Source of the DNA: Promethearchaeota archaeon | Lineage (GTDB): Archaea > Asgardarchaeota > Lokiarchaeia > Sigyniarchaeales > SOKP01 | Length of the DNA stretch: 64,000 nt | Assembly (NCBI GenBank): GCA_016840085.1 | Contig: JAEOTA010000064.1 | Coordinates: 21,583-85,582 of the forward strand | Direction: 5' to 3' | In this document: positions 32,804 to 48,113 of the stretch, one piece after another | How the letters are laid out: each line of letters begins with the position of its first letter | How positions within the stretch are numbered: the stretch's first letter is position 1 | Notes under the pieces: model-generated | Seen by the model: the letters and a program-made list of their open reading frames with translations, nothing else | What the model was told of the DNA's origin: nothing | The model's database searches: none | Translations under genes and position numbers: made by a program

Positions 32804-33325
32804 ATGCCCAAAAAGTTTATCCTAAAGATTCTTACTGCCGGGGAGGGAGGTGTAGGAAAAACCACACTCCTTCATAGGTACGTGGAAGGTAAATTCTCAG
32901 CGGAGACGAAAATGACAATAGGTGTTGAGTTTTTCCTGAAAGAGGTTGAGATTGATCAAAAACATTGCACTCTGCAGCTTTGGGACTTCGGGGGACAAGA
33001 AAGGTTTCGATTTTTGCTTGAAAGTTATGTATTAGGGGCAAAAGGAGCGCTGTTAATGTTCGATCTCACAAGAGTATCAAGCCTTGAAAATTTGCATCAA
33101 TGGATAAAGATTGTTCGAAAGGGAAATCCGAATCTTCCTGTTCTTTTTTTAGGGACCAAATTAGATTTAGAAGATGAGATACAAGTTGATGATGATTATG
33201 CAAGATCATTTCTAAATGAATTTAACTTAATTGATTTTCTTAAGATTTCTTCAAAAACGGGCGAGAATGTTCATGAAGCTTTTAGTATATTAACACAAAA
33301 AATATTAGAGCGACAAACTTATTGA
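32804..33325 (+). CDS. Rab/Ras-like small GTPase
   Basis: GEGGVGKT, TIGVEF, WDFGGQERF, TKLD, SSKTG. Confidence 0.95.
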   Translation: MPKKFILKILTAGEGGVGKTTLLHRYVEGKFSAETKMTIGVEFFLKEVEIDQKHCTLQLWDFGGQERFRFLLESYVLGAKGALLMFDLTRVSSLENLHQWIKIVRKGNPNLPVLFLGTKLDLEDEIQVDDDYARSFLNEFNLIDFLKISSKTGENVHEAFSILTQKILERQTY

Positions 33326-33892: not shown

Positions 33893-34408
33893 ATGTCTAA
33901 GCCAAAAATTTTAAAAATAATTACAGCAGGAGAGGGTGGAGTGGGTAAAACAACACTCCTTTATCGATATGTGGAGGGAAGATTTTTAGCAGATACACGC
34001 ATGACCCTAGGCGTAGAGTTTTTCATCAAAGAAGTTGATGTTGGAGGGAAAAAGATAAATTTACAGGTGTGGGACTTTGGAGGTCAGGAACATTTTAGAC
34101 CATTATTAAAAAATTATGCATTGGGAGCAAAAGGTGCACTATTACTTTTTGATCTTACCAGACCATCAAGCTTAGAGAAAATTAACCAATGGGTTAATAT
34201 TTGCAGAGAAGATAACCCAGATATACCTATTATTTTTTTGGGAACGAAATTGGATTTGATTGATTTAATATCTGTTGATGATGGTTATGCTCTGAGATTT
34301 AAAGTAGAATATAATTTTTTTGAATATTTAAAAATCTCCTCGAAAACTGGTGAAAATGTGAATTTAGCATTTGAGTTGTTAGCAGAAGAAATTGTAAGGA
34401 AGTTATAA
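33893..34408 (+). CDS. Rab/Ras-like small GTPase (paralog of 32804)
   Basis: GEGGVGKT, TLGVEF, WDFGGQ, TKLD, SSKTG. Confidence 0.95.
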   Translation: MSKPKILKIITAGEGGVGKTTLLYRYVEGRFLADTRMTLGVEFFIKEVDVGGKKINLQVWDFGGQEHFRPLLKNYALGAKGALLLFDLTRPSSLEKINQWVNICREDNPDIPIIFLGTKLDLIDLISVDDGYALRFKVEYNFFEYLKISSKTGENVNLAFELLAEEIVRKL

Positions 34409-34423
34409 AATTTTAGTATGATA

Positions 34424-35623
34424 TTAAATCCTGTTTATTAGAATACTTTTAATATTTTCTTTATTTAAATTAACCGGATTATTCTTTAATCCAGTTTTCT
34501 CTGCAATTTTATCAACATCTTCTTCTTTTATGGCATATTTAGCTAGCCTATCAATTTTTAATTCTTTTGTCCATTTTTCAAGTGTTTCAATTAATATCAT
34601 GATATAATGGTCTATTTTTCCCTCTTCTATCTCTTCTTTACCTACTAATAAAGCGCCAATTTTAGCATGTTTTTGCAACCCTTTCTTGCCTGATGGTCCA
34701 ATTTCTCGTAGAATTTTAATATTCATTCTAGTAGCTTCAGCAAGAAGCGTACCACATACTACACCATGAGGAATATCAAAGAAACCGCCAATTGACGAAG
34801 CCAATCCATGAACAATTCCTAAACCTGCATTTGCTAAAGAAATTCCAGATATTAGTGAGCCGTATGCCATTGCTGCTCGAACCTTAACATTCGATGCTCC
34901 AGTTGAGCATGCTAATATTAAATTTTCACTTATATATTTCATCCCACTAAAAGCTAAAGCATCAGTCATAAGATTAGCTTTAGGAGATACATAAGCTTCA
35001 AGTAATTGTGTAAAAGCATCCATTCCACACGCGGCAGAAATAGTTGCTGGACAGGAAATCATTAACTCAGGGTCGATTATTGCTACATTTGGTATTAAAT
35101 TATCATGACGAAGGGATTTTTTAAACCCATCTGGACCTATCTCGCTAATAACCGCATTTTTAGTAGCTTCACTTCCAGTACCTGATGTAGTTGGTATTGC
35201 TATATATGGAATTTTCTGACCATCGTGAGCTTTGTCACCTACTCCTTCTAAATAATTTTTAATTGAATCTCTTTTTGGAATCATTGCGGAAATTGCTTTA
35301 CCTGCATCTGTGACGCTTCCTCCCCCTATAGCAACAACTAAATCAGGCTTTTTATCTCTATATTGACTTGCAGCATTGTCAACTATATTAGGTGAAGGCT
35401 CACCTGAAATTGAAATAGTTGAATAGTTAAATGATTAACTTTCTAATATTTTTATTATCTCATCCCATTTTCCATATCTTTTAAGTGATTTTTCACCTAT
35501 TACAAAAAGTATATTCCTTCCGTACCTAGGCATAATATCAAAAAGTTGAGTTAATGCACCAGAACCAAAAATTATATGAGGAATACTAGCAAAATTAAAA
35601 GGAGGACCCATAATATTCATCAT
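34424..35623 (-). pseudogene. iron-containing alcohol dehydrogenase interrupted by an in-frame TAA (35435-35437)
   Basis: The two track ORFs share a frame; the bridge encodes GEPSP and AIGGGSVTDAGK. PTTSGTGSE and GLGIVH..HG lie downstream. Confidence 0.88.
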
Positions 35624-43753: not shown

Positions 43754-43963
43754 TTACTCCTCTTCTTCTTCTCCCATCAGTTCCTCTATTTTATCTTCTA
43801 ATTCTTCAATTTTATTGTCGAGTTCAGCTATTTTTGCATATGTTTCGCATGTTTCGCATCCATCATCTTCTTCACATTGAGGAAGGGTGTCACAAATTTC
43901 TTCTACTTTATCTCTCTCTTCTAATAATTTTTCAACTTCTTCTTCTAATTCTTCAATACTCAT
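43754..43963 (-). CDS. small acidic coiled-coil protein with four Cys
   Basis: C-x5-C-x5-C-x2-C between two heptad helices; AGGTG upstream of the ATG. Confidence 0.75.
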   Translation of the reverse strand: MSIEELEEEVEKLLEERDKVEEICDTLPQCEEDDGCETCETYAKIAELDNKIEELEDKIEELMGEEEEE

Positions 43964-44032: not shown

Positions 44033-44863
44033 TTAACGAAAAAAGTAAAAATACACGTATATAAGTAAAATTATCACAATTATTATTAAGAGAATAATAA
44101 AATAATATCTCCTTGTTTTTTTTGCTTTTTTATCCTTTTCCTTGCCTACTATACTATCATTTTTAGGAATAGGTTCCGGTTCTATATTTTGAATTACCTT
44201 CTGTTCACTACTAATTTTACCTATCTCTAATTCTTCTCTCTTATACAATTTTTTAGTTAATTTTTTAAATTCCTTTACTGATTTTTTAATCAATTCCAGA
44301 GTTTCTTTAGGTAAATCATCATCCTGGATTTCTTGATCTTGTGTCATAAAATCTAAACCAACGGTTAATTTGTAATTTTCTTCAAAACTTTTTTTGACAA
44401 AAGCATTAATTAATGAAGATTTACCGACAGCCGCCGCCCCAACAAGCAATATTTTAAACCTAAAATGATTTGAATCAACAATTTCGCCTAATCTCCCCCT
44501 AAAATCTAATAATGAAATTAAAGCTAACCTATAGAACAATTTATCCACATTTTTATGCTCTAAGGCTGATGTCTCCATAAACTCAAATAAATTGTATTGA
44601 TTTACTTTCTGTATTATTTTTTCTCTAGATATAGCTTCACCTATATCTTTTTTTAAATCATTTTTATTACCAACTAATATAATTGGGATGTTTCCTGAAC
44701 GTTCACGTAGATCGTTAAAATATTCGTCTATATTTTCAAATGTATCAGGGCGAGAAAGATCAAATACTAATGCTACTGCTGTAACTCCGTTGAAAAAATC
44801 AGTTTTAAAGAAATCAAACCGCTCTTGACCAGCAATGTCCCATAAACTAAGAGTTATCTTCAA
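44033..44863 (-). CDS. circularly permuted Rab-like small GTPase with a C-terminal TM anchor
   Basis: Motif order WDIAGQERF (G3), NKND (G4), ETSA (G5), GAAAVGKSS (G1), TVGLDF (G2), then a charged linker and a hydrophobic tail. Confidence 0.85.
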   Translation of the reverse strand: MKITLSLWDIAGQERFDFFKTDFFNGVTAVALVFDLSRPDTFENIDEYFNDLRERSGNIPIILVGNKNDLKKDIGEAISREKIIQKVNQYNLFEFMETSALEHKNVDKLFYRLALISLLDFRGRLGEIVDSNHFRFKILLVGAAAVGKSSLINAFVKKSFEENYKLTVGLDFMTQDQEIQDDDLPKETLELIKKSVKEFKKLTKKLYKREELEIGKISSEQKVIQNIEPEPIPKNDSIVGKEKDKKAKKTRRYYFIILLIIIVIILLIYVYFYFFR

Positions 44864-45059
44864 GATAAATATGGACCTCTACTATTATTATTTAAGAGAA
44901 AACTGCGATTCCTAAACAAAATTATGATTATAATTATAATAAATTCCAAATATTAAGTATTGAAACTTTACTGTTAGAAAATATAAAAGAAAGATATATA
45001 TTAAATTTTAAATATTGATTTAAAATTATGTAATAAAAAAATTGGAATTAGTTTTTCTC

Positions 45060-45572
45060 CTACATCTTTTTCTCTAAGATTTCAAGCAAATCTTCTTCGA
45101 GAGTCGAATGCCATTTTGGATGTTCCACGATGATCCCTATAAGATCACCAGTTTTGTTAAAAAAATAGAACGTTGGGATAGCTTTTAAGCCAAACTTAGG
45201 ATGAATTGCTTCAGGTGGAGAACGCTTTTTATGCTATATTACCTCTCCTGGTTTATGTAAAGCATTTACCATAATGCCATATAAAATTTGCAGGGTTACA
45301 TCTTCAGAGTTTAAAGTTTTTATGATTTTCATCATATGAGGCACATTCATTGAGCAATCAGGGCACCAATCCGCGCCCAATGCAATTATCTTTAATTTTT
45401 GGTCTTTTTCCTTTAATATTTTTTTAATTTTATCAAGAATTTTCAACTTTGGTGTATAGCTTTCAAAATTACTTTTTATTACTAGCTTAGCTTTATATAA
45501 TTCAAAATAATCATCAGGTGATAAAGTTGGAGATATTAGATCATTATATTTTAATTCTCTCATATATAACAT
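45060..45572 (-). pseudogene. thioredoxin-like protein interrupted by an in-frame TAG (45234-45236)
   Basis: WCPDC active site lies before the stop; the cis-Pro motif AIPTFYFF and G.IVEHP lie after it. The frame continues 57 codons to TAG at 45060-45062. Confidence 0.85.
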
Positions 45573-47582: not shown

Positions 47583-48113
47583 TTATTCTATTTTTCTATT
47601 TTTTAAGATTATATTGGTTAATAAATTAAATATTTTGTGGACATTTTCTCCAGTTTTAGAACTACATTCAATAAATCCATCTGCGTTTTTGAGTTTTGCT
47701 ATTTGCATTGCCTTTCTAGTTGAAATCTCTTTAAGATGAATTAAATCCGTTTTTCCACCTACAAAAATAATTGGTAGATCATATTCAATTTCTTTTTCAA
47801 CAATTTCAAACCAATCATCTATATGAGCTAATGATCCATAATTAGTTATGTCGTACATAAAAATAGCTCCACTTGCTCCTCGAATATAAGAAGGAAAAAG
47901 AAATCTAAATCTTTCCTCTCCTGCAAAGTCCCAAATTTGTAACTTTACCATTTCACCATCCACTTCAATTGCTTTTAATAAAAAGTCTACTCCTAATGTC
48001 ATTTGAATGTTTTCTTTAAAAAGATTTGTTAGGAATCTATGAGCTAAAGTAGTCTTTCCTGTTTGACTATCTCCAAAGAGTACTATTTTGAAAGTTGAAG
48101 TATAAGATGCCAA
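47583..48113 (-). CDS. Rab/Ras-like small GTPase
   Basis: GDSQTGKT, TLGVDF, WDFAGEERF, GKTD, CSSKTG. Confidence 0.94.
   Translation of the reverse strand: MASYTSTFKIVLFGDSQTGKTTLAHRFLTNLFKENIQMTLGVDFLLKAIEVDGEMVKLQIWDFAGEERFRFLFPSYIRGASGAIFMYDITNYGSLAHIDDWFEIVEKEIEYDLPIIFVGGKTDLIHLKEISTRKAMQIAKLKNADGFIECSSKTGENVHKIFNLLTNIILKNRKIE

Follow-up and report, generated by a model that had tools for sequence, protein, structure and literature searches.

A circularly permuted Rab-like GTPase with a predicted C-terminal membrane anchor in a lineage of Lokiarchaeia

Results

A single G domain in permuted order

In a 64,000-nucleotide stretch of a Promethearchaeota contig (JAEOTA010000064.1, referred to here as the window) we identified a gene encoding a genuine, circularly permuted G domain of the Rab-like type, a single domain which is broken at the turn between strands β2 and β3 and which runs on into a predicted tail anchor (Table 1). 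Its motifs follow one another as G3-G4-G5-G1-G2, not in the canonical order G1-G2-G3-G4-G5, and each occurs once. The Pfam Ras model (PF00071) matches the protein in two stretches (E = 3e-38), with residues 2-114 corresponding to model positions 47-157, MMR_HSR1 and other P-loop models begin at residue 137, and the Pfam hits of the 276-residue protein as a whole are of the Ras type only. Compared with Rab11 (3bfk), residues 133-184 correspond to chain positions 5-56 and residues 4-113 to positions 58-165; the two halves are therefore complementary without overlap, which places the break at the β2/β3 turn. When the sequence is re-ordered (residues 131-183 followed by 2-120) it aligns unbroken with canonical paralogues from its own genome, at best with 44% identity over 166 residues. 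The G2 region reads Y-K-L-T-V-G-L-D-F, which is of the Rab type and not TIE.

The open reading frame starts with TTG and closes with a stop at 44033-44035. Upstream, the same frame is closed by an in-frame TAG (44879-44881) six codons before the TTG, the Shine-Dalgarno-like AGAGGT read from the sequence overlaps this TAG, and among the stop-to-stop frames in the 370-bp gap upstream of the gene there is none that codes for a P-loop. A preliminary description of this locus, made from the letters and their translations, had reported the TTG, the TAG six codons up, the AGAGGT and the lack of an upstream P-loop, and had proposed the order G3-G4-G5-G1-G2 with each motif present once in two complementary halves and the break in the β2-β3 loop; the first set of statements matches our read-out of the sequence, and the second is borne out by the Pfam Ras and Rab11 alignments. 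A protein identical to that of the window is already on record (P0002). The position of the start codon (window 44861-44863) is kept in nine of 12 orthologues from the genus including the window copy, and hence in eight of the 11 others (loci L002-L010).

Table 1. Features of the permuted GTPase gene and its product, in window coordinates.
Feature	Position	Strand	Evidence or residues
Complete CDS, permuted Rab-like (RasL) GTPase, 276 aa	44033-44863	-	P0002 identical; gap-free orthologues, 12 genus loci
Shine-Dalgarno-like AGAGGT	44875-44880	-	Sequence
First half, residues 2-120, β3 through α5	44504-44860	-	Pfam Ras, Rab11 match, VIA-align
G3 DIAGQ	44825-44839	-	Residues 9-13
G4 NKND	44657-44668	-	Residues 66-69
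G5 TSA	44564-44572	-	Residues 98-100
New α5-to-β1 connection, residues 121-132, R-L-G-E core	44468-44503	-	Conservation, pLDDT 81-94
Second half, residues 133-180: β1, G1, α1, switch I, β2	44324-44467	-	Rab11 chain 5-56
P-loop G1 GAAAVGKS	44417-44440	-	Residues 142-149
G2 Thr167 in switch I	44363-44365	-	Invariant
Family-specific segment after β2, residues 181-214: D-x-L/I-P-x-E, then long Lys-rich helix	44222-44323	-	
Variable linker, residues 215-240, poorly conserved	44144-44221	-	pLDDT below 50, full-length model
Tail anchor (predicted): basic patch and hydrophobic helix	44039-44143	-	Sequence, AF2, hydropathy
Basic patch K241-R252	44108-44143	-	Sequence
23-residue hydrophobic helix Y253-F275, one residue (Arg) after	44039-44107	-	Sequence, hydropathy, AF2

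For the fold, an AF2 model of the full-length protein from a 15-sequence alignment gave a pLDDT of 58, with values below 50 in the linker and a helix at residues 246-275. This input was replaced by a deeper alignment of 134 diverse members covering residues 1-215, which gave a pLDDT of 85.2 and a pTM of 0.84, with low confidence confined to switch II (residues 14-18) and switch I (residues 162-166). The modelled elements follow in the order β3, α2, β4, α3, β5, α4, β6, α5, connector, β1, α1, β2 and a long helix (186-214), the connector being confidently modelled throughout and the residue blocks between 171 and 200 having mean pLDDT values of 89-93. Foldseek and VIA-align superposed residues 1-122 on Rab11 (58-178), RabA1a (60-179) and RhoA (51-181) with Z of about 12 and an rmsd of 1.4-1.9 Å, which for Rab11 and RabA1a extends over 116-122 residues, the Rab11 match reaching model residue 123. 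Both programs align sequentially, and the superposition on solved structures therefore covers the first half; the second half (133-180) is predicted to sit in its canonical place from the pTM and from sequence complementarity, not from superposition. The preliminary description had put forward such a comparison of a monomer model with Rab, and over the first half the two agree. The model suggests one compact domain, with a superposition that covers its first half only.

A conserved family found in one order

A search of 5.8 billion proteins returned >100 homologues with 57-89% identity from NCBI, JGI, ENA and Logan assemblies, all of which start at β3, and a search of 50%-identity representatives added distant members (38-45% identity) which likewise start at β3. 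Matches in the ESM Atlas were to generic small-GTPase clusters only. Across 134 aligned sequences D9, G12, Q13, K67, D69, S99, G142, G147, K148 and T167 are invariant, N66 is nearly so (at least 90%), and P185 and E187 of the LPxE motif are at least 90% conserved; V146 is invariant in the family alignments, like G142, G147, K148 and T167. In two homologue alignments R124, G126 and E127 of the connector are invariant or nearly so; residues 215-240 of the linker, again in two alignments, show no conservation. Twelve orthologues from the genus are gap-free over 185 codons, the α5-to-β1 junction included, and the nine comparisons with the window copy in which dS could be estimated gave dN/dS of 0.06-0.12. 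The window's genome encodes about 55 canonical small GTPases, which show 33-44% identity to its single permuted one. We regard the permuted gene as real and conserved, and as very probably functional.

When 400 genomes of the phylum were scanned, with the 6-8 best candidates scored per genome, members turned up in only two related GTDB families, both belonging to the same order; very divergent copies could be missed by this scheme. Collinear full-length matches were not found in the other 30+ families among these 400 genomes. In the first of the two (f1), 49 of the 53 species that make up the window's genus carry the gene, as a single copy per genome, and it also occurs in five further genera and in one of 42 species of another genus; in the second (f3) it is present in three genomes. 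This restriction suggests a late, lineage-specific origin. Members occur in a short form (about 208-243 aa), which consists of the G domain and the basic helix and lacks an anchor, a medium form (about 268-316 aa) with one predicted C-terminal transmembrane helix, to which the window copy belongs, and a long form (376-755 aa) with a disordered Pro-/charge-rich linker, a conserved domain and two C-terminal hydrophobic helices. The extra domain of the long forms spans about 110-130 aa, has no Pfam match, is not VWA and carries the motifs FPGC and ITP..G, as in the long-form genes at L013:64-2187 (707 aa) and L014:2412-3731 (439 aa). Each of these two loci also has, immediately downstream and in the opposite orientation, a gene for a large protein with TPR repeats.

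In a tree of re-ordered G domains 20 family sequences formed one clade (SH-aLRT 95) with two subclades; the backbone of this tree did not resolve, and no canonical sister group of the family emerged from it. The best solved matches of the window protein are Rab11, Ypt31, Rab7 and Rab6. A search for longer homologues as intermediates of a tandem duplication returned only unrelated multi-GTPase arrays with 26-31% identity, and fused di-GTPases (P0243 from a Lokiarchaeota MAG, P0263 and others), considered as sisters of the family, were rejected as the tree places them elsewhere. Within the window's own genome the re-ordered sequence shares 42% and 40% identity with the products of two adjacent, same-strand canonical GTPase genes (C24:132197-133431), one of which ranks with its closest paralogues. 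Such a tandem pair fits an origin of the permutation by duplication, fusion and truncation, without proving it.

A predicted tail anchor, old and easily lost

The hydrophobic tail Y253-F275 lies above the 1.9 threshold on the Kyte-Doolittle scale (19-residue averaging). On sequence the protein has what is expected of a tail-anchored protein, namely a single C-terminal transmembrane helix with a basic patch before it and an N-terminus that is β3 and holds no signal. The tail has no Cys and there is no lipidation site, and α5, after which a Rab tail would begin, here runs into β1. The preliminary description had noted a basic patch followed by a hydrophobic C-terminus of about 20 residues, which sequence and hydropathy resolve into K241-R252 and the 23 residues after it, and its proposal of a membrane-bound Asgard GTPase that does without lipidation agrees with the predicted transmembrane tail, the absence of Cys from that tail and the confinement of the family to Asgard archaea. 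It had further suggested searching homologues for both the motif order and the tail: the permuted order holds in all aligned members, but an equivalent tail is present in only 34 of the 134. Since the remaining 100 have no anchor, anchoring is not essential to the function of the family. Hydrophobic C-terminal tails occur in both subclades, and on a tree of the 134 sequences the anchor state changes at least two, and about seven, times; the anchor is therefore old, yet easily lost. The window copy falls within a nine-member clade in which all members are anchored.

In Ras-type folds the nucleotide pocket is on one face, and the start of β1, the end of α5 and the β2/β3 turn are all on the opposite one; joining the old termini by a short connector (12 residues here) and opening the turn should therefore leave the nucleotide site intact. 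After β2 the chain would leave the domain through the LPxE motif and the Lys-rich helix and pass along the variable linker into the C-terminal transmembrane helix. Positive charges precede this helix and a single residue follows it, so by the positive-inside rule the layout should be tail-anchored with the G domain in the cytoplasm. In its GTP state the protein would recruit partners to the cell membrane. On balance we think that it is probably a permanently membrane-tethered GTP/GDP switch which recruits its partners without lipidation or an escort cycle; that it binds and hydrolyses GTP, how it is oriented in the membrane and that it recruits effectors are inferences.

Relation to GTPases already on record

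The YlqF/YawG (YRG) GTPases are universal ribosome-assembly factors and do not belong to the Ras superfamily. Their order is G4-G5-G1-G2-G3 with the break between β3 and α2, whereas the window protein has G3 first, not last. In the summary given by Elias & Novotny (PMC2430557) they are described as natural permutants of the P-loop GTPase which are still active. The order found here is instead that of cpRAS, defined as G3-G4-G5-G1-G2 and opened at the link from strand 2 to strand 3 (Elias & Novotny 2008, Biol Direct 3:21, PMC2430557), which was offered as a counter-example to the claim that a permutation broken at β2/β3 cannot fold (PMC2430557). The preliminary description had given cpRAS as G4-G5-G1-G2-G3 and the present breakpoint as different from it; on this it was mistaken, as cpRAS and the window protein have the same order and the same β2/β3 break, with α5 joined to β1 and all G motifs kept. 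They differ in that cpRAS belongs to the Ras family, has TIE as its G2 motif, lies within large VWA- or macroglobulin-type proteins and is judged eukaryote-specific (PMC2430557), whereas the window protein is an archaeal, stand-alone GTPase of the Rab-like/RasL type with a predicted tail anchor. Its Rab-type G2, its stand-alone form and the confinement of the family to one order make an origin independent of cpRAS likely. One protein combining VWA and Ras (P0134) was considered as a cpRAS protein and rejected on its canonical motif order.

Members of the archaeal family have been recorded once before: Table S3 of Vargová et al. 2024 (bioRxiv 10.1101/2024.02.28.582541) annotates KKK41097.1 and KKK43026.1 of Lokiarchaeum GC14_75 as 'RasL ... 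Circularly permuted sequence', and the authors re-order permuted sequences for their alignments, the permutation being absent from the main text. Judged by reading the printed sequences, these two belong to the same family, with the same β3 start and junction as the window protein and with the common stretches KITLS-WDIAGQERF-FFKTDFF, the KILLVG-AAVGKS P-loop and LEI...IPKEV...basic helix. They are, however, short forms with an acidic tail end and no transmembrane helix, whereas the window protein has the predicted anchor. Our literature search found no archaeal permuted or tail-anchored Rab/Ras GTPase in the main texts of papers, that table being the sole record, and no paper on the anchored or long forms of the permuted family. 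The topology has been known since 2008, and a supplementary table has already drawn attention to the archaeal family; what has apparently not been described before is the self-anchored architecture with its variants, the distribution of the family and the selection on it.

Canonical Asgard Rab-like/RasL proteins (Thorarchaeota Rab 7EZB; Surkont & Pereira-Leal 2016; Tran et al. 2024) are of the same sequence type (E = 5.8e-23 to 7EZB) but have the canonical order and are reported to have no membrane signal, in contrast to the permuted order and predicted transmembrane tail of the window protein. Archaeal Rab-like proteins have been reported to be without a membrane-association signal or C-terminal extension (PMC4915359, PMC10933270), and Vargová et al. 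2024 found no Asgard sequences sister to eukaryotic Rabs (bioRxiv 10.1101/2024.02.28.582541). Eukaryotic Rabs carry prenylatable Cys in a hypervariable tail after α5, in place of which the window protein has a predicted transmembrane helix. Outside the archaea, a 243-aa Rab7-like protein from a Bolivina argentea transcriptome (P0308, EukProt) apparently starts at β3 and continues with the P-loop half, in the order seen here. It forms a single-member cluster, and could be either an artefact of transcript assembly or a permuted Rab of eukaryotes in its own right.

Genomic surroundings

The neighbours of the permuted gene are acyl-CoA dehydrogenases, AOR and a thioredoxin-like gene, with a methyltransferase in relatives, and this neighbourhood, which is metabolic, gave no clue to a pathway. 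The thioredoxin-like gene (Pfam Thioredoxin_9, 45060-45572, minus strand) contains one in-frame TAG at 45234-45236. This codon is TGG (a conserved Trp) in five orthologues from the genus; the TAG is therefore specific to the window genome, a conserved recoding was rejected, and sequence comparison indicates that it is either a genome-specific G-to-A nonsense change or a sequencing error. On the other side, downstream, a gene at 43754-43963 (minus strand), with 69 bp between it and the GTPase gene, encodes a coiled-coil protein of 69 aa that is very acidic and contains a C-x5-C...C-x2-C cluster. It is kept near the permuted gene in several genera, directly downstream in some, but an opposite-strand HD-domain gene intervenes between the two in many genomes and an operon was not established; the acidic protein is a possible candidate partner of the Lys-rich helix. 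Canonical Ras-family GTPase genes also occur in the window, one at 47583-48113 (minus strand, Pfam Ras E = 2.6e-45), 2.7 kb upstream of the permuted gene, and others at about 32966-33292 (plus strand; C60:54548-54874) and 34052-34465 (plus strand; C60:55634-56047).

Discussion

Tandem canonical GTPase genes and fused di-GTPases exist in Asgard genomes together with the permuted gene, from which a truncated, non-functional remnant of a GTPase pair, or a chimera made in assembly, might arise. The preliminary description had named such a deletion remnant or chimera as the case that would overturn its reading. That case failed, and we reject it as practically inconceivable, because the same junction is common to >100 independent assemblies, the frame is open and under selection (dN/dS about 0.1) and the catalytic residues are invariant; moreover, neither the search for longer homologues nor the G-domain tree yielded a close tandem full-length relative. 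A single ancient permutation event from which both this family and eukaryotic cpRAS descend, or descent of the one from the other, would account for the identical motif order and breakpoint, and among prokaryotes the Asgard archaea are the nearest relatives that eukaryotes have. Against it, cpRAS is of the Ras family with the TIE G2 motif, has been judged eukaryote-specific and lies inside proteins of ~840-970 aa (cpRAS-VWA type) or 3933 aa (DdiCPRas2), whereas the archaeal family has the Rab-type T-[VI]-G-[LV]-D-F, finds its best solved matches among Rabs and Ypt31, and is confined to two related families among 400 Asgard genomes; we think a shared origin very improbable.

Other alternatives to a simple tethered switch concern what the new chain exit does. 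The free N-terminus of β3 and the C-terminus of β2 lie at the edge of the sheet, and β2 with its helix could pair with the β3 of a neighbour, making a domain-swapped dimer or oligomer, and hence a membrane-bound multimer, the functional unit; the preliminary description had likewise raised domain-swapped oligomers. The long charged helix after β2 in the AF2 model would be in keeping with this, as would the argument of Anand et al., as relayed in PMC2430557, that a break at the β2/β3 turn impairs folding; the monomer model is, however, confident as one compact unit (pTM 0.84), and we hold the swapped arrangement to be unlikely. It has also been considered that GTP binding shifts β2 and thereby moves or releases the basic helix, an Arf-like coupling on a Rab-like scaffold. 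The LPxE motif and the basic helix after β2 are conserved family-wide, in the forms without a transmembrane helix as well, and the helix has high pLDDT beside the G domain, but the idea is drawn by analogy, and forms anchored by a transmembrane helix need no regulated membrane-binding helix; we hold such a nucleotide-coupled tether to be unlikely. Equally speculative is an adaptive, as opposed to neutral, value of the permutation itself, whereby moving the exit from α5 to the end of β2 would couple the tether and its basic helix directly to switch I and the interswitch, and the nucleotide state would control membrane engagement; we would give this little credence. Were it true, it would represent an independent archaeal form of lipid-free, GTP-regulated membrane engagement comparable to the amphipathic-helix switch of Arf, and direct evidence for Asgard Ras/Rab-like GTPases working at membranes.

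Whether the many Asgard Ras/Rab-like GTPases act at membranes bears on the origin of eukaryotic trafficking; the narrow distribution of the permuted family argues against a role of its own in eukaryogenesis. The family represents the second natural instance of the G3-G4-G5-G1-G2 permutation, whose structural possibility was at one time disputed outright, and the first from prokaryotes that our search turned up, and it provides a small stand-alone protein in which the folding, nucleotide cycling and membrane coupling of this topology can be tested. With the permanently tethered switch as the preferred reading, one lineage of Lokiarchaeia would have joined a Rab-like switch to the membrane by a predicted transmembrane helix of its own, which has been repeatedly gained or lost.
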